This document shows positions 28,879 to 44,037 of a stretch of 64,000 bases of DNA, one piece after another. Under the pieces are notes generated by a model. It ran no database searches, was not told the DNA's origin, and saw only the letters and a program-made list of their open reading frames with translations. This DNA comes from Planctomycetota bacterium (lineage in GTDB: Bacteria; Planctomycetota; B15-G4), in contig JBQTIY010000009.1 in the NCBI GenBank assembly GCA_052387675.1, positions 141,804-205,803 of the forward strand, written 5' to 3'. The translations under genes were made by a program, and so were the position numbers. Within the stretch, counting starts at the first letter, position 1, and each line of letters starts with the position of its first letter.

Positions 28879-31800
28879 CTAGCGGCGTGAAGGCGCCGCG
28901 GCGCGCGCCGTGCGTGCGGCGCTGGCCTCGAAGCGCTCGAGCAGCCAACGCAGCCGATCGGCCGGCTCACGCACGGCGCTCGGCCAGTTGGTGCGGACGC
29001 GGCCGGGGCTCACCGAGCCCAGTTCGCGCGCGTCGAAGGGGCCGCGCCGCGCCCAGGCGCGCTCGTCGGCCACGGTGAAAATCACGCCGCCCAGACCGTC
29101 GGCCTGCACCGAGCTGAGGCCGGCGAGGCGCACGAGGCGGCGCAGCCGGAAGAGCTCGATGAGCTGAGCGGCGGGGCGCGGCAGCCGGCCGAAGCGGTCC
29201 TGAAGTTCGGCCTCCAGCGCCTGCAGCCGCTGCGCTCCCGCGGCGGCCAGCCGGCGCAAGAGCGACATGCGCAGGCTTTCTTCGGGCACATAGTCGGCCG
29301 GCAGGAAGGCGGTGAGGCCAAGTTCCACTTCGATTTCGCCCGGCTCTTCCGGCACGCGCTCGCCCTTGGCGGTGAGCACGGCGTTGCGCAGCAGCCGGCA
29401 GTACATGTCGTAACCCACGGCCATGATGTGGCCCGACTGCTCGGCGCCCAGCAGGTTGCCGGCACCGCGCAGCTCGAGGTCGCGCAGCGCAATGGGCAGG
29501 CCGCTGCCCAGGCTGCTGAACTCCTCGATGGCCTTGAGGCGGCGCTGGGCGTCCTCGGCCAGCGGCGGATCGCGCGGCACGAGAAAGTGCGCGTAGGCCT
29601 GCACGTGCTCGCGGCCGACGCGCCCGCGCAACTGGTGCATGTCGGCCAGCCCGAAGTGGTGGCTGTCGGTGACGATGATCGTGTTGGCGCGCGGGATGTC
29701 GATGCCCGACTCAATGATGGCCGTGCAGACGAGCACGTCGAGCTCGCCGCGGGCGAAGGTCTCGATGACTTCGCGCAGCTCGTCGCTGCCCATCTGGCCG
29801 TGCGCGAGGGCGGTGCGCGCCGTAGGCACCAGCGCGCGGATGCGCGCCAGCACCGTGCCGATGCTCTGCACGCGGTTGTGCAGCACGAAGACCTGCCCGC
29901 CGCGCCCGATCTCGTGCAAGAGCGCCTGGCGCAGCGCGCCGTCCTCGTCGTAACCGACCTTGGTCAGCACCGGCCGGCGCCCCGGCGGCGGTGTCTTGAT
30001 CGTGGAGATGTCACGCAGGCCGGACATGGCCATGTGCAGCGTGCGCGGGATAGGCGTGGCCGAGAGCGTGAGCACGTCCACCGTGGCGCGGAGCTGCTTG
30101 AGGCGTTCCTTGTGCGCGACGCCGAAGCGCTGCTCCTCGTCCACGATGGCCAGGCCCATGTCGTGAAAGCGCACGTCCTTGCCCAGCAGCCGGTGCGTGC
30201 CGATGACGATGTCCACTTTGCCGACGGCGAGCTGCTCAAGCACGCGCTGCTGTTCCTTGTCGCCGCGAAAGCGTGAGAGCACTTGCAGGACCACGGCTTC
30301 CTCGGCCATGCGCCGCGAGAAAGTGTCGTAGTGCTGCTCGGCCAGGATCGTGGTGGGCACGAGCACGGCCACTTGCTTGCCGCCGGCCACGGCCTTGAAC
30401 GCCGCGCGCACGGCGATCTCGGTCTTGCCGAAGCCCACGTCACCGACGAGCAGGCGGTCCATCGGCCGCTCGCCTTCCATGTCGCGGCGCACTTCACTCC
30501 AGGCCACGGACTGGTCGGGCGTGTCCTCGTAGGGGAAGGCCGCCTCGAAGCGGCGCTGGAAATCGTCCTCGCCAGGGAACTGGAAGCCGCGCCCGCCCTG
30601 GCGGGCGGCTTGCAGCGCCAGGAGTTCGGCCGCCAAGTCGCGCACCGCGCGCGCGACTTTCTCTTTGCGATTGCGCCAGGTGCGCCCGCCGATGCGATCG
30701 AGCCGCGGCCCGCGCGCTTCGGCGCCCACGAAGCGCTCCACCAGGTCGATGCGGCTGGCCGGCACGAAGAGGCGCGTCTCCTCGGCAAACTCGAGGACCA
30801 GGAAGTCCTCCTCGCCTTGCTCGCGGGCGAGCCGCTCCAGGCCCACAAAGCGCGCGACGCCGTGCAACAGGTGCACGACGGCGTCGCCTGGATGGAGTTC
30901 GGCGAGGTTGTCCAGCGCGCGCGTGGCGAGCACACGCCGGGCGCGCGTGCGCCGCACGGGCCGGCGCCCGAGAAGTTCGTGGTGATGCACGAGCACTGGG
31001 CCGGTGCCGGGGAAAGCAAAGCCACGCGAAAGCCGGGCGACGTAGAACTCGACTGGCCCGCTGAGGCGTTCGGCGAGACGCTCGCCTTCGGCCGCCGTGT
31101 CGCCCAGCACGAGCACTTGGCGGCCTTGCTCCTGCCAGGTGGCCAGCACGTCTTCCGCCGGGCGCGGATCGCCGCCGACCGAGCGCAGCGAGAGGTCGCG
31201 TGCCGGATCTCCGAGATCGAGCGGCAAGAGATCGAGGCCCGGGCGCTCGGCGAGGGCGCTGAGCGCGGCCGTGATCTCGCGCGGCGCCAAGCCATGCTCG
31301 AAGGCCACCTCGGCGAGGCGGTCCTTGAGCCGCGGCGGGTCCAGGACGAAGACCGCAGCGTCGCTGGGGAACAGATCCACGAGACGCGCGCCTTTCGGCG
31401 CAGACGGCGCGCCGCCCAGCGGCAGCGTCACCTGGTCGACGCTGGCCACCGAGCACTGCGTCTCCACATCGAAGCGGCGCAGTTCCTCGATCTCGTCATC
31501 GAGCAGCTCCGCGCGGATCGGGTTCTCGGCGGCCCAGGGGTAGATGTCGAGAATGTCGCCGCGCAGCGACCATTCGCCGGGCGCGGCCACAAGCGGCACG
31601 CGCTGTAGGCCGGCCGCGGCGAGCTGTTCGAGCAGCGTGGCGCGGTCGGGTCTGTCGCCGCGGCGCAGCGTGAGGCCCTCGCCGCTGGGTTCGGGCAGGC
31701 GCTCAAGCAGCACCGGGCCCGGCACGACGAGCAGACCCGCGCCGGCCTCGGCCAGAAAACTCAGCGCGACGAGACGCTCGGAGCGATTGCCGGCAAGTTC

Positions 31801-32106
31801 AGGGCCATCGGCCAGGCCCTCCTCCTCGACGGGCAGCAGGCGGAGCGGCAATTGCGGGAAGGCCGTGGCGAGATCCAGCAGCAGCGACTCGGCGTCCTCG
31901 GCTGTGGGAGCGAGCGCGACGCTGCGCGTGCGGCCGGTGCTGAGCAGGCCGCACACCAGCGCAGCGGAAGCGCCCCAGGCGCCGCCGAGCGTCGCGCGCG
32001 GCTCGAGCGAGATCTGTGCCAGCGCCGGCAGCCGGCCGAGCGCAGCCACAAGCGTGGCGAGGGGCGTAGCAGGGCCAGGAGTCTGGCCCTCAGCGCGCCG
32101 CGCCAT
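28879..32106 (-). CDS. mfd: Transcription-repair coupling factor Mfd
   Basis: [58 protein letters not shown]. Confidence 0.96.
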
Positions 32107-34087
32107 CAGCGGCTCCGGGCGGATTGCCGTCTTCAGGGAGCCATGTTTCGGGATCGGCCTCGGGATCAGGGTCGGCGTCGTGCGGGGGCGAGGAGTCTCC
32201 GAGCGCCTCGGAGCGCAAGCGCAGGAGCGCGAGGCGCGCCGCGCGCTGCTCGGCCTGGCGCTTGTTCTTGCCACTGGCCACCGCGAGCTCGCGGTTCCCG
32301 ATCATGGCCGCAACGCGAAAGACCTTGGCGTGATCGGGGCCCTCCTCGCTCAGCACGCGGTACTCGGGTGTCTCGCCGCTTTCGCCTTGCGTGAAGTGCT
32401 GCAGCGCGGACTTGTGATTGCCGTGCCGGCGCCGGTCGGAGGCGGCCTCGATGAGCGGACCGAAGTCGGACTGCACGATGCGGGCCACGGCCGGCAAGCC
32501 GCCGTCGAGGAAGACCGCGCCCAGCACGGCTTCCACGGCGTCCGCCACGATGGAGTCCGGCACTTCGCCGGCCGTGCGCACGCTGGCATTCATGGTGAGC
32601 AGGTCCACCAGGCCCCAGCCTTCGGCGACGCGGCGCAGGGCGTGGCGGCTCACGACCGCGCCGCGGATGCGGGAGAGTTCGCCCTCATCGCGGTCGGTGA
32701 AGCGCTGATACAGGTCGCGTGCCACGCAGAGGCCCAGCACGGAGTCGCCCAGGTACTCCAGGCGCTCGTTGGGCGCACGCACATCGCTGCGCGCTGAGGC
32801 GTGCGTCAAGGCCGTTCCGGCCAGGCGCTTGTCGTGGAAGCGATAGCCGATGTGCTGTTCGAGCTGTGCGACCCGGGCTTCGGATTCTGCAGCGCTCTGG
32901 GCGTCCAACGCGGGCGCCGTGTGCACGGAGCGTGCCTGAGCCAGGCGCCGCGACTCCTCCATGGCGAAGCGGTCGGTCATGCCGGCCACGTAGTCGCAGA
33001 CCGTGCGGCCCAGGCCCTCGGCCTCACGGCGGCCGCGATAGTCGGCCGGCAGTTCGTCCGGATGCGCGTGGTAGTGCTCCACGATCACGGCGATGGCTTC
33101 GCGCGCCGTAGCGGCCGAGCGGAGCACGCGCGGATGCCGGTAGAAACGCTCGAGCAGAAAGGCGCCGAGCTGGCGGTGCTGGCTGCCGCGTTCGGCTGAG
33201 AAGCTCACCAGCCGCGCGGCCTGCTGCATGACGTCGCTGGCCTCGCGTGCCGTCGTGGCCTCGAGCAAACGCTGCGAGTGGGAGACGATGTCATGCAGCG
33301 AGGCCTTGAGGATGCGGCTGAGCAGGTCTTTGCGGCGCGCGCCCGCGGAGCGACTGCCCGCACGGCCGGCAGGCTTTGGTTGGGCCGGCTCCTCGGCCAG
33401 CACGCAGCGCCAGATCTCCAACTCGGCCAGTTCCGGTTCGGAGAGGATCCCGGCGCGCAGCCCGTCCTCAAGATCGTGGTGCTGATACGCAGTGGAGTCG
33501 GCGAGATCGGTGGCTTGCGCTTCAAGCACAAGGCCCGGCGTGGCTGGCGCGCCGCGCCCCGCTTCGCCGCCGTGCTTGAGGATCGAGCGGCGCAGCACCT
33601 GCGTGAGGTTCAATCCCTGCCGGTCGGGATAGGGTGACTCGAGCACGTCCACAATGCGCAGCGCCTGCGCGTTGTGGTTGAAACTGACGCCGGCGCGTTC
33701 GCCCAGAATGCGTTCACCCTCGTGGCCGAAGGGCGGATGCCCGATGTCATGCACGAGCGCGAGAGCCTCGCCAAGAGACTCATTCAGGCGCAGCGCCGAG
33801 CACAGGAAACGCGCCATCTGCGCCACCTCGAGCGTGTGCGTCAGGCGCGTCCGATAGAAGTCGCCCTCGTCGATGACAAAGACCTGCGTCTTGTCCTTGA
33901 GGCGCCGAAACGCGCCGCAGTGCACGATCCGGTCGCGGTCACGGACGAAGGCCGTGCGGTACGGATCGGGGGCCTCCGGTTCGGGCCGGGCACCGTGCTG
34001 GTCCGAAAAGCAGGCCAACGGCGAGAGCCACTCGTGCTCTCGCCGTTCGGCCTCTTGGCGGGTCGCGACTGAGGATTTCGAGGCCAC
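32090..34087 (-). CDS. Fusion of HD-family dGTP triphosphohydrolase (N-terminal) and ribonuclease III with dsRBD (C-terminal)
   Basis: RDRDRI, KTQVF, RTRLTH, HDIGHPPFGH, DYVAGMTD; then ALTHAS, NERLEYLGD, ADAVEAVLGA, KSALQ, GPDH, KRQAEQRAA; single reading frame. Confidence 0.9.
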   Translation of the reverse strand: MASKSSVATRQEAERREHEWLSPLACFSDQHGARPEPEAPDPYRTAFVRDRDRIVHCGAFRRLKDKTQVFVIDEGDFYRTRLTHTLEVAQMARFLCSALRLNESLGEALALVHDIGHPPFGHEGERILGERAGVSFNHNAQALRIVDVLESPYPDRQGLNLTQVLRRSILKHGGEAGRGAPATPGLVLEAQATDLADSTAYQHHDLEDGLRAGILSEPELAELEIWRCVLAEEPAQPKPAGRAGSRSAGARRKDLLSRILKASLHDIVSHSQRLLEATTAREASDVMQQAARLVSFSAERGSQHRQLGAFLLERFYRHPRVLRSAATAREAIAVIVEHYHAHPDELPADYRGRREAEGLGRTVCDYVAGMTDRFAMEESRRLAQARSVHTAPALDAQSAAESEARVAQLEQHIGYRFHDKRLAGTALTHASARSDVRAPNERLEYLGDSVLGLCVARDLYQRFTDRDEGELSRIRGAVVSRHALRRVAEGWGLVDLLTMNASVRTAGEVPDSIVADAVEAVLGAVFLDGGLPAVARIVQSDFGPLIEAASDRRRHGNHKSALQHFTQGESGETPEYRVLSEEGPDHAKVFRVAAMIGNRELAVASGKNKRQAEQRAARLALLRLRSEALGDSSPPHDADPDPEADPETWLPEDGNPPGAADGAAR

Positions 34088-34116
34088 CGGGGGCCCAGCT
34101 TACGCGAGGGCCTCGC

Positions 34117-34767
34117 TTAGAGCGCCTTGGCGTGCTCCTTCAGGTAGCTGGCCACGCCATCCTTGCTGGCCTTCATGCCCTTCTTGCCGGGGGCCCAACC
34201 GGCCGGGCAGACCTCACCGTTCTTGGTGTGGAAGTCGAGGGCGTCGACCATGCGCAGCATCTCGTCGATGTTGCGGCCGAGCGGCAGGTCGTTGACGACC
34301 TGGTGGCGCACGATGCCCTTGGAGTCGATCAAGAAGGAGCCGCGCAGGGCCACGCCGCCGCCGACCACGTGGGTCTTGCCGTCGCGGTCGATGATGCGAT
34401 TGGCGCCGAGCAGCACGTCATAGGCCGCCGCGATGCTCTTGGTCAGGTCGGCGACGAGCGGGTAGTTCAGCTTGCCCACGCCGCCGGCCTCGACAGCGGT
34501 GTTCGTCCAGGCCATGTGCGTGAAGTGGCTGTCGATCGAGCAGCCGATGACCTGCGTGTTGCGGGTCTGGAACTCCTTGGCCCGGTTGTGAAAGGCCAGC
34601 AGCTCCGAGGGGCACACGAAGGTGAAGTCGAGCGGATAGAAGAAGAGCACCACGTTCTTGCCGCGGAAGTCGCTCAGCTTGAAGTCGGCCTTGAAGGAGC
34701 CGTCAGGCATGAGGGCGGTGGCGGTGAAGTCGGGCGCTTCCTTGGTCACGAGCACGGACATGGTCAT
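34117..34767 (-). CDS. ahpC: Typical 2-Cys peroxiredoxin (AhpC/Prx1)
   Basis: FYPLDFTFVCP, GRNIDE, GEVCPAGW. Confidence 0.93.
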   Translation of the reverse strand: MTMSVLVTKEAPDFTATALMPDGSFKADFKLSDFRGKNVVLFFYPLDFTFVCPSELLAFHNRAKEFQTRNTQVIGCSIDSHFTHMAWTNTAVEAGGVGKLNYPLVADLTKSIAAAYDVLLGANRIIDRDGKTHVVGGGVALRGSFLIDSKGIVRHQVVNDLPLGRNIDEMLRMVDALDFHTKNGEVCPAGWAPGKKGMKASKDGVASYLKEHAKAL

Positions 34768-34839: not shown

Positions 34840-35331
34840 TCAGGCGGACTTGGGAGCCTCGCCCTCGAACTGCTGGTGCGCGAGCCAGTGTTCCAGACCC
34901 AGCGTCTGGATTTTCTGGAGCTGCGTCTCGAGCCAGTCGATGTGCTCCTCCTCGTTCACCAGGATGTGCTCGAAGAGTTCACGCGAACCGTGGTCCTTGA
35001 GCGCGAAGGCGGTGTCGAGCGAGGCGCGCAGGACCTCCATGGCGCGATGCTCCAGCGCCAGGTCGGCAGCCAGCATGCTCTTCACGTCCTTGCCGATGAC
35101 CACCTTTTCGTAGCTGGTCATGTTCGGCTGGCCGTCCAGGTACAGCATGCGATCGATGATCTGGTCGGCGTGGCGCATCTCGTCCATGGACTCATCCCAC
35201 TCAAAGCGCGCCAAGCGCAGGTAGCCCCAGCTCTTGGCCATCTTCGAGTGAAGGAAGTACTGATTGATGCCGGTCAGCTCCATGGTGAGCACGGCTTGCA
35301 GCGCAGCAAGGATCTTGGGGTCCGCCTTCAT
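34840..35331 (-). CDS. bfr: Bacterioferritin
   Basis: ELTGINQYFLH, ESMDEMRHAD (heme Met), EEEHIDWLETQL. Confidence 0.95.
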   Translation of the reverse strand: MKADPKILAALQAVLTMELTGINQYFLHSKMAKSWGYLRLARFEWDESMDEMRHADQIIDRMLYLDGQPNMTSYEKVVIGKDVKSMLAADLALEHRAMEVLRASLDTAFALKDHGSRELFEHILVNEEEHIDWLETQLQKIQTLGLEHWLAHQQFEGEAPKSA

Positions 35332-35496
35332 GCTGTTTGCATAGCATGGCGGGCGCGGTGGCTGCAAACGCGCCGCGCGGTCGACGCGGTACGGCCGCAC
35401 TGAGCGTGCCCCCTTCAACGCGACAGGGGCGCGGCCCCCTTGGCGGGAACCGCGCCCCTGGCATGCGAAGTCTGGCGCAATCGCCAGACCGGCAGG

Positions 35497-40193: not shown

Positions 40194-40453
40194 CCAGAGA
40201 TGAGAGGGAGGCTGGCCGGTTTACCAAATGGAGCCTAGCCCCGGCCGTAAATGGAGGCACTCAAGTTTGAAACTTGGGGCGGTCGATGGGGGCGCGCGGT
40301 CCGCAGAAAAAGAAGCCCAAATGGGCACCTCCGGACGCATGCGTTACAATCCATGTCTTCCTCTCCCCCGAAACAGAACCTCACTCCTGACACGGCCGCC
40401 CCTTCTCGGCGGCCGCACTCATGAAGTACCCCGCCTACGTTGGAGGCCCTTTG

Positions 40454-42115
40454 ATGTTCCGCAGCACCCTCTCGCTGTCCCTGGCCCTTGCGGCCCTTTC
40501 AACCCCTCTTGCAGCCCAGGACGACCTCGGCGAGGTGCTGATCCATAAGAAGATCAGCTCGATCGACGGCACCTTCTCGGGCGGCCTCGACAACGGCGAT
40601 CTGTTCGGCGGGGCCATTGCAGCTCTCGGTGACCTCGATGGCGATGGCATCGGCGACTACGCCGTCGGCGCCATTCGCGATGACGATGGCGGCACCGATG
40701 CGGGCGCAGTTTGGATTCTCTTCCTGCGCGCCAACGGGACCGTGAAGTCTTTCCAGAAGATCAGCGCCCTAGAGGGCGGCTTGGTTGGCCCGGTAGCGGC
40801 CGGCGATGCCTTTGGCGTTTCGCTAGCTGCTTTGGGCGATTTGGATAGTGACGGCGTGCGCGACCTAGCGGTCGGTTCCTTCCTGGACGACAGCGGTGGC
40901 CCCAACCGTGGTGCGGTCTACGTTCTCTTCCTCAATGCCAACGGCACCGTCAAGGCTGAACAAAAGATCAGTTCGACGAGCGGTGGCTTGGGGACTCCGC
41001 TGGATGACGAAGATCGCTTTGGCCACGCCCTGGCCCGGCTTTCGCCCACCCGAATCGCTGTAGGAATTCTCTTCGATGATGATGGCGGCGCTGACCGTGG
41101 GGCCGTTTTGATTCTAGACCTCACCACCACGACCGGAATGGTCGCCGGTGAGGCCAAGATCAGCAGCACCGCCGGTGGCTTCGGTGGAGTCCTGGACGAC
41201 GGCGACTGGTTCGGAACAGCCTTGGCGGATGCCGGAGACATCAACGGCGACACAAACACTGACCTACTCGTGGGCGCCCGGAAGGACGATGACGGCGGCA
41301 CCGACCGTGGTGCGCTGTGGGTCCTTTTCCTCGACGCGGGAGGCGCTGTTCTCGGCCAATCAAAGATTAGTCATGGGAACGGCGGTTTCTCAGGCAGTCT
41401 GGCCAATCTCGACGCCTTTGGAACCTCCGCGGCGAAATTGGGCGAAGTCGGCGGCGACACCGTTGTGGCCGTGGGCTGCCCGTTCCAAGATGACGGTGGC
41501 ACCGACCGTGGTGCGTTGTGGCTGCTCTTCCTGGATTCGACTGGGACTTGCACGAATAGCCTCAAGATCAGCGATACCGTTGGGAACTTCGCAGGGCAAC
41601 TCGCCAACAGCGATCAGTTCGGATACGCCCTGGTTGCTCGTGACGACGCCAATGAGCAGTTCGGCTTCGCTGATCTGATCGTGGGTGCGCGTTTCGCAGA
41701 CAACGGTGGTGCCGATCGCGGCCGCGTTCACCTCTTGCGCATCAGCGAGGGCCCCTTCACCGACCTTGGAAATGGTCTGCTCGGTAGCAACGGCATGCCG
41801 GAACTCACCGGCACCGGGACCTTGGTCGCGGGCACGGCCATGTCGATCAATCTGGTCAGCGCGAAGCAGAGTGCCTCTGCCGCCTTGGTCGTCGGGATCT
41901 CGAACCTCTACGCCAACTTCAAGGGTGGCGTCATGGTGGGTGACCCCTTGATCATTTTCTCGGGCCTGACGACGACCCCCTCGGGTACGGCCACTCTGGG
42001 AACCCCCAGCTTCCCCTCGGGACTTTCGTTGTTCACCATGTACTTCCAGTACTGGATCACAGAGAGCCCGGGCGTGTTCTCTGCCAGCAACGGCTTGGCG
42101 ATGACGGCCCCCTAA
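40454..42115 (+). CDS. Secreted FG-GAP/integrin-alpha beta-propeller protein (paralog 1)
   Basis: RBS GGAGG, signal peptide, repeated FG...GDLDGDG..D.AVG..DDDGG.DRGA.W.LFL. Confidence 0.85.
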   Translation: MFRSTLSLSLALAALSTPLAAQDDLGEVLIHKKISSIDGTFSGGLDNGDLFGGAIAALGDLDGDGIGDYAVGAIRDDDGGTDAGAVWILFLRANGTVKSFQKISALEGGLVGPVAAGDAFGVSLAALGDLDSDGVRDLAVGSFLDDSGGPNRGAVYVLFLNANGTVKAEQKISSTSGGLGTPLDDEDRFGHALARLSPTRIAVGILFDDDGGADRGAVLILDLTTTTGMVAGEAKISSTAGGFGGVLDDGDWFGTALADAGDINGDTNTDLLVGARKDDDGGTDRGALWVLFLDAGGAVLGQSKISHGNGGFSGSLANLDAFGTSAAKLGEVGGDTVVAVGCPFQDDGGTDRGALWLLFLDSTGTCTNSLKISDTVGNFAGQLANSDQFGYALVARDDANEQFGFADLIVGARFADNGGADRGRVHLLRISEGPFTDLGNGLLGSNGMPELTGTGTLVAGTAMSINLVSAKQSASAALVVGISNLYANFKGGVMVGDPLIIFSGLTTTPSGTATLGTPSFPSGLSLFTMYFQYWITESPGVFSASNGLAMTAP

Positions 42116-42342: not shown

Positions 42343-44037
42343 ATGGAGAGAGACATCGTGACGATTCCCCGTGGCATCACCCGTTCCTTGCCGCTTCTCG
42401 CTGTCGGCCTGCTTACTGGAACCGTGCCCTTGATGGCGCAGTCCCTGCCCGGCGACGTGTTGACGACTAGCCGAATCAGCTCGAGCGTCGGCGGTTTCGT
42501 GAATGACCTTGGCGATGGCGACCTCTTCGGTGGCGCGGTCGCTCCCCTCGGCGATCTGGACGGAGACGGTGTCCGAGACGTCGCAGTGGGTGCCATGCGC
42601 CATGATGCCGGGGGCACGGATCGCGGAGCTGTGTGGATTCTGTTCCTCAACGCTGACGACAGCGTTAAGGCCTCCACCAAGATCAGCAGCACGTCCGGCG
42701 GCCTTGTGGGCCCGCTAGCCGATGGCGATCACTTCGGCGTTTCGCTGGCAGGCCTCGGTGACCTGGACGGCGACAACATCACTGACCTAGCCGTTGGTGC
42801 CTATCTGGCCGACCACGGCGGTGTCGATCGCGGTGCGGTTTATGTGCTCTTCCTCAATGCCAACGGAACCGTCAAGGCCGAGCAAGTCATCAGCAGCACG
42901 GCAGGAGGCTTCGGTGGCGTACTCGACAACGATGACCGCTTTGGTCTGAGCTTGGCGAATCTCTCCAATGGCCGGCTCGCCGTGGGTACGGGCTTCGATG
43001 ACGACGCCGGTCCGGACCGCGGCGCCGTGTGGCTCGTAGACCTGGCCGCCAATGGGACCGTCACCTCCTTCGGGAAGATCAGTGCGACCTCTGGTGGGTT
43101 TGGCGGCGTTCTCGATGACCAGGACTGGTTCGGGAGCGCGGTGGCCTCGGCTCGCGACCTGGATAGTGATGGTGTCATCGATCTCTTCGTGGGCGCCAGG
43201 CAGGATGACGATGGTGGTTCCAACCGCGGCGCCTTGTGGGTGCTACTCCTGAATGCCAACAAGACGGTGAAGGCCTCGACCAAGATTAGTGCGTCCAGCG
43301 GCGGATTCACCGGCGCGCTCGACAACACCGACAACTTCGGTGCCTCCGTCTGCCTCCTTGGTGACTACGACGGCGACGGCAAGCGCGATGCGGCCGTCGG
43401 AGCCTCCGGTGACGACGACGGTGGCCTAAACCGCGGCGCGGTTTGGATTCTGCACCTAGCTGCTGACGGGACCGTGCTCGGCCACAGCAAGTTGAGCAGC
43501 CAGGTTGGAAACGTTACGGGCCCCCTCGCAGACGGTGACCAGTTCGGCTACTCGATCGCGTGGCTCGACGGCAACTATGGCCTGGGCGATGCGCTGGTCG
43601 GCCAGCGTTTCGCTGACGATGGCGGCGCGGATCGTGGCGCTGTAACTTCGTTGCGCCTGAGCCATGGCATCTGGACAGACATGCGTCACTTCAAGTCGGG
43701 CAGCGCGGGCGCGCCCGTTCTGACCATGACCGGAACGCTCATCCCGGGCGCGATGGTCAACGTGGGTGTCACTGGCGCAGCCGCCTTCAAGTCCGCAATC
43801 ATTGCCATCGGACTGAATGCGACTGCTGCTCCGTTCGCCTCCGGCGTGATCGTGCCCTCTTTGGACATGCTGCTGGGCGGTTTCGCGACCACGGGCGCCG
43901 GCACCTTGTCGGTCAACGACCGCTTCCCGCCGAACCTGCCTGAGGGCTTCGTCTTCTACACCCAGGTGTGGATCCGCGATCAGGCGGCGGCCTTCGGCTT
44001 CTCCTTGACCAACGCCGTGGCGGGCGCGATGCCCTGA
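42343..44037 (+). CDS. Secreted FG-GAP/integrin-alpha beta-propeller protein (paralog 2)
   Basis: Same repeat architecture and C-terminal domain as paralog 1; exact start uncertain. Confidence 0.85.
   Translation: MERDIVTIPRGITRSLPLLAVGLLTGTVPLMAQSLPGDVLTTSRISSSVGGFVNDLGDGDLFGGAVAPLGDLDGDGVRDVAVGAMRHDAGGTDRGAVWILFLNADDSVKASTKISSTSGGLVGPLADGDHFGVSLAGLGDLDGDNITDLAVGAYLADHGGVDRGAVYVLFLNANGTVKAEQVISSTAGGFGGVLDNDDRFGLSLANLSNGRLAVGTGFDDDAGPDRGAVWLVDLAANGTVTSFGKISATSGGFGGVLDDQDWFGSAVASARDLDSDGVIDLFVGARQDDDGGSNRGALWVLLLNANKTVKASTKISASSGGFTGALDNTDNFGASVCLLGDYDGDGKRDAAVGASGDDDGGLNRGAVWILHLAADGTVLGHSKLSSQVGNVTGPLADGDQFGYSIAWLDGNYGLGDALVGQRFADDGGADRGAVTSLRLSHGIWTDMRHFKSGSAGAPVLTMTGTLIPGAMVNVGVTGAAAFKSAIIAIGLNATAAPFASGVIVPSLDMLLGGFATTGAGTLSVNDRFPPNLPEGFVFYTQVWIRDQAAAFGFSLTNAVAGAMP

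Follow-up and report, generated by a model that had tools for sequence, protein, structure and literature searches.

In a 64,000-nucleotide (nt) stretch of DNA from a Planctomycetota bacterium (assembly GCA_052387675.1, contig JBQTIY010000009.1, positions 141,804 to 205,803; hereafter the window), a single open reading frame (ORF) joins dgt, which encodes a deoxynucleoside triphosphate (dNTP) triphosphohydrolase, to rnc, which encodes ribonuclease III (RNase III). Judged by sequence comparison, the gene fusion is genuine and evolutionarily fixed, and not an assembly artefact. We think it probable that it is a housekeeping fusion peculiar to this lineage, in which two neighbouring genes that were translationally coupled came to encode a bifunctional protein. 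An initial annotation of this DNA had described one ORF of 665 amino acids (aa) with a complete Dgt-type HD domain and its ligands, an Ala-rich linker without a stop, and a complete RNase III with a double-stranded RNA (dsRNA)-binding domain (dsRBD), its end overlapping the start of mfd. Because our ORF, domain, motif and mfd-overlap checks all agree with it, we regard that description as correct in every checkable point. The parts of the ORF, in window coordinates, are as follows.

32090..34087, reverse strand: fused dgt-rnc ORF, 665 codons, GTG start, TGA stop, no internal stop
32930..34087, reverse strand: dNTP triphosphohydrolase module, residues 1-386, from Pfam, TIGR01353 and Protein Data Bank (PDB) matches
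33488-33847, reverse strand: HD domain, residues 81-200, Pfam score 49.9 against a gathering score of 22
32945-33208, reverse strand: HD_assoc domain, residues 294-381, Pfam score 75 against 22.2
32903..32929, reverse strand: unstructured part of the interdomain linker, residues 387-395, within a 26-aa variable stretch (residues 383-408)
32438..32902, reverse strand: RNase III catalytic domain, residues 396-550 (Pfam 419-540, above the gathering score)
32216..32413, reverse strand: dsRNA-binding domain (dsrm), residues 559-624, Pfam score 57.9 against 23
32093..32203, reverse strand: acidic, Pro-rich, disordered C-terminal tail, residues 629-665, whose final codons overlap the start of mfd

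The N-terminus of the ORF lines up with the starts of its homologues, and from its length we estimate a product of ~73 kDa. In NCBIfam, the N-terminal part scores 244.9 with the dGTP_triPase subfamily model TIGR01353 (cut-off 152.35), and the RNase III equivalog TIGR02191 scores 192.1 (cut-off 166.25), covering model positions 1-218 of 219; scored on the genome, the latter gives 195.6 bits. We observed that His 84, His 113, Asp 114, Asp 194 and Asp 197, which we take to be the metal ligands of the HD domain, are invariant in 45 aligned fused sequences, as are many of the residues around them. The RNase III part contains the motifs NERLEYLGD (Glu 441, Glu 444, Asp 448) and DAVE (Asp 516, Glu 519), whose acidic residues presumably map onto those of the E. 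coli enzyme; over the same 45 sequences Glu 444, Asp 448 and Glu 519 are invariant, while Glu 441 and Asp 516 are conserved in at least 90%.

The source assembly comprises 3.39 Mb in 22 contigs and is 89.9% complete. The fused ORF is its only match to TIGR01353 and its only match to TIGR02191, which answers for this assembly the question, raised by the initial annotation, of whether the genome has another rnc. We examined the DNA contigs of four Logan runs from a single study. In two of these runs, which may represent the source samples, a contig reads through the junction with no gap: one (X1, record 3) spans 32269-34300 with 0 differences, and the other (X2, record 11) spans 32344-33852 with 1 difference.

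The fusion is general in the family. Among the genomes of f1, the GTDB family to which the window's genome belongs, a frame check of the fetched loci placed dgt and rnc in the same frame, with no stop between them, in 13 of the 13 that could be assessed, its own included; neither a stop nor a frameshift was thus found at the junction in close relatives. As the fusion is conserved in relatives, chance is excluded. A search of 41 genomes (40 relatives and the window's own) returned a single uninterrupted full-length match in 12 genomes of the same family and, in two more belonging to genus g3, two matches within one open frame. Two f1 genomes say nothing either way: a contig end truncates the gene in G006, where rnc was not found elsewhere, and G010 is 84% complete and yielded neither dgt nor rnc. 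No second, separate rnc or dgt match was present in the f1 genomes searched. Ten further loci from a named-genome collection have identical match geometry; these were taken to be the same genomes and counted once.

Beyond these genomes, among the 120 best protein-cluster matches, 48 non-self clusters (clustered at 90% identity) contain both HD_assoc and RNase III, at 54-70% identity to the query. They derive from JGI, NCBI, ENA and Logan assemblies and lie on contigs that include ones of 5.29, 1.88 and 1.16 Mb; no full-length dGTPase-only protein above 50% identity was found among the same 120 matches. One of the closest unfused matches is the dGTPase of the cultured Engelhardtia mirabilis. 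Where the fused proteins have public names, these are 'ribonuclease III', 'dGTPase', 'dNTP triphosphohydrolase, partial' or 'hypothetical protein', in metagenome-assembled genomes (MAGs) of Planctomycetota. One fused protein, P0048, is labelled 'Pseudohongiellaceae bacterium' at NCBI, which is probably a binning or labelling error.

When 1.84 billion representatives clustered at 50% identity were scanned exhaustively with HMMER, P0047 (699 bits) was the only full-length fused representative among the 150 best. The runner-up is a 383-aa dGTPase with 317.5 bits, and the two modules do not occur together in any of the remaining 149 listed proteins, the lowest of which scores 211.7 bits. In a sample of 151 genomes from the phylum, an uninterrupted full-length match was seen only in the window's own genome and three f1 genomes among the matches listed, a further 119 matches lying outside the listing; one genome (G137) has a full-length match interrupted by one TGA. 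The nearest clusters of the ESM Atlas are plain dGTPases (scores 0.75-0.76), with no fused cluster of at least 50 members, a result that is uninformative on novelty. Two proteins with other uncommon architectures of bacterial-type RNase III, unrelated to the fusion locus, were also noted: P0257 (480 aa) carries RNase III and dsRBD tandemly duplicated in one chain, and P0254 (2391 aa) holds two RNase III-dsRBD units.

To place the fusion in evolution we turned to the unfused relatives. Our collection holds 42 genomes of the window's GTDB class, all from one order and divided among five families. All 26 genomes of the other four families (f2-f5) have separate dgt and rnc matches. The two genes nevertheless adjoin in 12 of 12 f2 genomes, in the one f3 genome (1/1), in 5 of 5 from f5 and in one f4 genome; in the seven remaining f4 genomes a distance of 1.5-5 kb separates rnc from dgt, or the two are on different contigs. 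In one of the f4 genomes (G024), a gene of the beta-lactamase family (PF00144; locus L102, 3139-5406, reverse strand) lies between dgt and rnc on the opposite strand and breaks the adjacency. Because of that gene, we rejected as spurious a 1275-aa open frame around rnc that could be mistaken for a fusion in G024, and a 1104-aa open frame upstream of rnc in this genome is likewise spurious. Of the 13 fused loci, 12 have mfd as the gene after rnc, as do 5 of the 7 unfused loci of the class that we examined. The order dgt-rnc-mfd is conserved across the class (L004-L021, L103, L104) and in at least one other family of Planctomycetota (G043).

Five unfused junctions within the class were inspected at the sequence level. 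In two, the dgt stop overlaps the rnc start by 4 nt, as ATGA in G017 and as GTGA in G020. In G025 and G028 a spacer of 45-48 nt with one in-frame TGA lies between the genes, and in G019 the spacer is 49 nt. A frame offset that fits the 4-nt overlap was computed by hand from match coordinates for 14 of 19 adjacent pairs, of which G017 and G020 are verified in sequence. By their sequence, these unfused junctions look like steps toward fusion. In three genomes dgt and rnc share one frame with a single TGA between them: G025 (locus L016, 3141-3143), G028 (L017, 3132-3134 of the reverse complement) and, from outside the class, G137 (L107). Occasional read-through of this stop would yield a low level of fused protein, and on sequence the three look like intermediates.

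For each domain a maximum-likelihood tree was built from 23 sequences, of which 13 are fused, 7 are unfused members of the class and 3 lie outside the class; midpoint rooting served for drawing only. The fused sequences form one clade in both, with support of 100/100 in the dgt tree and 100/99 in the rnc tree. Tree topology and gene order together show that the fusion, as reconstructed here, arose once, from an ancestral adjacent dgt-rnc-mfd arrangement. We also observed by eye that the N-terminal extension of the RNase III of G020 resembles the linker of the window's protein, which suggests that the linker combines what was once the tail of Dgt with what was once that of RNase III.

Outside the class, dgt adjoins rnc with stops in between in G043 (with mfd downstream), G108, G082 and G137. 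G043 and G108, which have equal open-frame values, were rejected as fusions on account of those stops, and G137 likewise. G082, with a 786-aa open frame around dgt, was rejected because the dgt frame ends before rnc, whose match is itself split over two frames. In G162 and G097 the long open frames around dgt contain no rnc within the fetched stretch. Neither rnc nor mfd turned up in the flanking DNA retrieved, up to 6 kb, at any of 70 further loci, of which 69 are unfused dgt loci (mostly from other phyla) and one is an f1 locus that is truncated. From the database, phylum-sample and flank scans we conclude that dgt-rnc linkage is a trait of Planctomycetota and fusion a trait of one family.

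Both modules appear to be intact. Between the window's protein and its f1 relatives, identity is 60-75% for the dgt module and 57-68% for the rnc module, falling to 42-47% and 40-46%, respectively, against the other families. As these values parallel those of mfd (57-70% for the long matches within f1, about 45% against other families), neither half is decaying. At E ≤ 1e-5 there are 65 PDB matches, of which 60 were listed. Among those listed, the best for the dNTPase module is 2dqb_A (E 2.7e-77, residues 20-383), while the RNase III module matches the bacterial enzymes 3n3w (3n3w_A, E 2e-39), 2a11, 7r97, 1o0w and 1yyk, with E values from 2e-39 to 1e-24.

An AlphaFold2 model built from a 45-row alignment has a mean predicted local distance difference test (pLDDT) score of 87.5, and both modules are confidently predicted. 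The dsRBD is modelled as a helix, three strands and a helix with pLDDT above 90. Within the linker only about residues 387-395 are non-helical, with pLDDT below 50 at 389-393. The C-terminal tail (629-665) has pLDDT values of 29-41, lies below 50 across 640-665 and is variable in sequence among relatives. The dNTPase module also has a variable insert, modelled with low confidence and containing many Ala, Pro, Arg and Gly residues (residues 229-251; 33334-33402, reverse strand), the length of which varies among the fused relatives. A complex prediction between residues 1-388 and residues 394-640, with both alignments, gave a score of 0.00 (mark 0.32), which speaks neither for nor against docking of the modules.

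Each half has well-studied counterparts. The closest to the N-terminal module is the Thermus thermophilus-type dNTPase (PDB 2dqb; PRK01286 group/TIGR01353), deposited as a putative dGTPase with 6 chains, which we take to be a homohexameric dNTPase of broad specificity. The two share HD and HD_assoc and align over residues 20-383, but the fusion continues past the C-terminus of its dNTPase part into RNase III, falls short of the equivalog cut-offs and has a variable insert at about 229-252. The C-terminal module shares its catalytic domain, single dsRBD and motifs with class 1 bacterial RNase III (E. coli Rnc 7r97, Campylobacter 3n3w, Mycobacterium 2a11, Aquifex 1yyk); however, the canonical enzyme is a stand-alone protein of about 220-250 aa, whereas here it occupies residues ~396-628, the C-terminal third of a 665-aa protein, and is followed by an extra disordered acidic tail. 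In Dicer and Drosha, chains of which match residues 405-622, RNase III likewise lies inside a larger protein, but these have two RNase III domains that form an intramolecular dimer, together with a helicase or PAZ domain, whereas the fusion has one such domain and an unrelated enzymatic partner. Eukaryotic SAMHD1 binds nucleic acids, and its RNase activity is disputed. It resembles the fusion in being an HD-superfamily dNTPase with an extra domain, but its added domain is an N-terminal SAM, it is a tetramer and it is only distantly related; no SAMHD1 chain occurs among the 60 listed of the 65 PDB matches. SAMHD1 is allosterically regulated, according to PMC9257424.

The genes around the fusion in the window are the following.

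28879..32106, reverse strand: mfd, transcription-repair coupling factor (Pfam UvrB_inter, CarD_TRCF_RID, DEAD, Helicase_C, TRCF)
34117..34767, reverse strand: peroxiredoxin (AhpC/TSA, 1-Cys type, from Pfam), upstream, 29 nt before the start of the fusion
34840..35418, reverse strand: ferritin-like (Dps-type) gene, upstream, from Pfam

The ATG at 32106 shares the frame of the mfd ORF and is its probable start, the Mfd proteins of relatives aligning from residue 2-16 of it; given this start, the 17-nt overlap with the end of the fusion noted in the initial annotation holds. A Dps-type gene also lies upstream of the fusion in L009, L012 and L015. Besides ahpC, dps and mfd, the neighbours include a sulfatase and aminotransferases; no gene for defence or of a mobile element was seen among them in the window. 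Farther away, two 564-aa ORFs on the forward strand (40421-42115 and 42343-44037), both with FG-GAP repeats, look like tandem paralogues.

From these observations, we think it probable that in the ancestor of one uncultured family of Planctomycetota, dgt and rnc were adjacent and translationally coupled within a dgt-rnc-mfd cluster and then merged into a single reading frame, with a short flexible linker derived from the C-terminal tail of the old Dgt and the N-terminal tail of the old RNase III. The product would be translated as one chain and would keep both activities, the N-terminal module hydrolysing dNTPs and the C-terminal module cleaving dsRNA. The main effect would be a fixed 1:1 co-expression and co-localisation of enzymes that were already co-translated, and not a new activity. 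The dNTPase part may, more speculatively, oligomerise like its hexameric relatives and so let the RNase III domains pair as their usual dimers. According to PMC9257424, hexameric dGTPase relatives consist of three dimers arranged in parallel, whose interfaces carry the allosteric sites, and single-stranded DNA (ssDNA) activates E. coli Dgt. By analogy, and as speculation, a hexameric core could present its C-termini in pairs for RNase III dimers.

Several observations weigh against a bifunctional housekeeping fusion. Within the alignment of fused sequences (A1), P0037 has Asn at the position of Asp 516 and P0026 has Gln at that of Glu 441, substitutions that may modify activity in single lineages. 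Every dGTPase equivalog model of the PRK01286 series scores below its cut-off, the best being NF002326 with 333.8 against 390. The predicted template modelling score (pTM) of the AlphaFold2 model is 0.66, so that the mutual orientation of the modules is not confident, and the known members are all uncultured MAGs or metagenome contigs. Finally, at least one in-frame ATG, GTG or TTG occurs in 13 of the 13 linkers examined, so that an internal start is possible in any one species.

This last point bears on a first alternative, in which there is one frame, but RNase III is made mainly as a separate protein, either from an internal start in the linker (e.g. the TTG at 32910-32908) or by proteolytic cleavage, and the cell keeps two enzymes. 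In the window, 26 aa (AQARSVHTAPALDAQSAAESEARVAQ), 9 of them Ala, separate the conserved blocks, and across 49 sequences the linker ranges from 21 to 61 aa with 15 distinct lengths, always in frame and with little conservation of sequence. A flexible, poorly conserved linker would suit such an arrangement, and in the sister lineages rnc starts at the equivalent place. However, across the linkers of the 13 genomes neither a start codon nor a Shine-Dalgarno (SD)-like motif is conserved in position, an SD-like string stands before only 5 of the 31 candidate start codons listed, and the TTG of the window, which the initial annotation had singled out near 32908 as a possible start for a separate RNase III, has a near-positional counterpart in only 1 of the 12 other genomes (L008). 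A consensus scan likewise detected nothing promoter-like in the region covered, nor any terminator-like site on the reverse strand inside the ORF, although this is a weak test for Planctomycetota. Moreover, separate production would leave nothing to keep the frame open across 15 linker lengths and in all 13 genomes; that so many indels have left it intact suggests that the long product is important. We therefore consider mainly separate enzymes unlikely. On sequence grounds, the checks of the junction mostly favour a true fusion, with internal initiation in the linker possible.

A second alternative is regulatory coupling, in which binding or cleavage of dsRNA would switch the dNTPase allosterically, as in antiviral or stress-related dNTP depletion, or dNTPs would gate RNA processing. 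Precedent is offered by the interface allostery of hexameric dGTPases and by the ssDNA activation of E. coli Dgt (both from PMC9257424), and a functional link is hinted at by the conserved dgt-rnc(-mfd) linkage, seen in the class and also in certain other Planctomycetota. The fused protein also matches the PADLOC dGTPase model with 272.5 bits, and it belongs to the same HD dGTPase superfamily as the anti-phage enzymes (NF041026/PADLOC dGTPase); but the PADLOC model has no cut-off and any Dgt would match it, the NCBIfam antiphage_dGTPase model NF041026 gives 192.7 against a cut-off of 400, and the closest models are those of the housekeeping PRK01286 group. Unlike the anti-phage dGTPases, the fused gene is single-copy, vertically inherited according to the trees and set among housekeeping genes, not in a defence island or on a mobile element. 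It serves as both sole rnc and sole dgt, as expected of housekeeping genes, and its linker varies in length and sequence, contrary to what a tuned allosteric connection would lead one to expect. We consider regulatory coupling improbable. Of the two readings offered by the initial annotation, the housekeeping fusion is upheld by the sole gene copies, the single clade and the neighbours, while dsRNA sensing with dNTP depletion or an anti-phage role received no positive support; most likely, the protein is a housekeeping fusion and not an antiviral sensor-effector.

A bolder version of coupling, which we regard as a long shot, is a new assembly in which a hexameric dNTPase core carries three RNase III dimers, with dNTP hydrolysis and the binding of dsRNA (or of R-loop-related RNA) regulating each other. 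If this were true, the co-transcribed mfd would tie RNA processing, dNTP supply and transcription-coupled repair together in these Planctomycetota, and the dgt-rnc-mfd order of the unfused relatives would mark a physical partnership of Dgt and RNase III that has gone unnoticed elsewhere. That a lost stop or an indel in the assembly or sequencing of a MAG created only an apparent fusion is extremely improbable, for although the window comes from a MAG and the Logan contig depth is low (about 5-7), independent contigs from two runs read through the junction with no gap, and the same architecture recurs in 12 other species-level genomes and in the 48 protein clusters, from several sources and with megabase-scale contigs among them.

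Full-text literature searches, judged mostly from titles and the openings of abstracts, returned no description of a fusion between a dGTPase or dNTPase and RNase III. We therefore regard the protein as a previously undescribed domain architecture that joins two well-known enzymes, members of which are already in public databases under half-names: records that read 'ribonuclease III' and records that read 'dGTPase' or 'dNTP triphosphohydrolase' each hide half of the function.

Fusions of neighbouring genes ('Rosetta stone' cases) often flag proteins that work together. Here, the sole RNase III and the sole dNTPase of a whole bacterial family are predicted to be one polypeptide, and the fusion, together with the coupled genes of its relatives, predicts a link between control of the dNTP pool and processing of dsRNA that is undescribed in the literature searched. 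If the fusion is merely permanent co-expression, it would still be a tidy example of the passage from operon to fusion, with the intermediates, a 4-nt overlap and a single in-frame stop, persisting in sister lineages.

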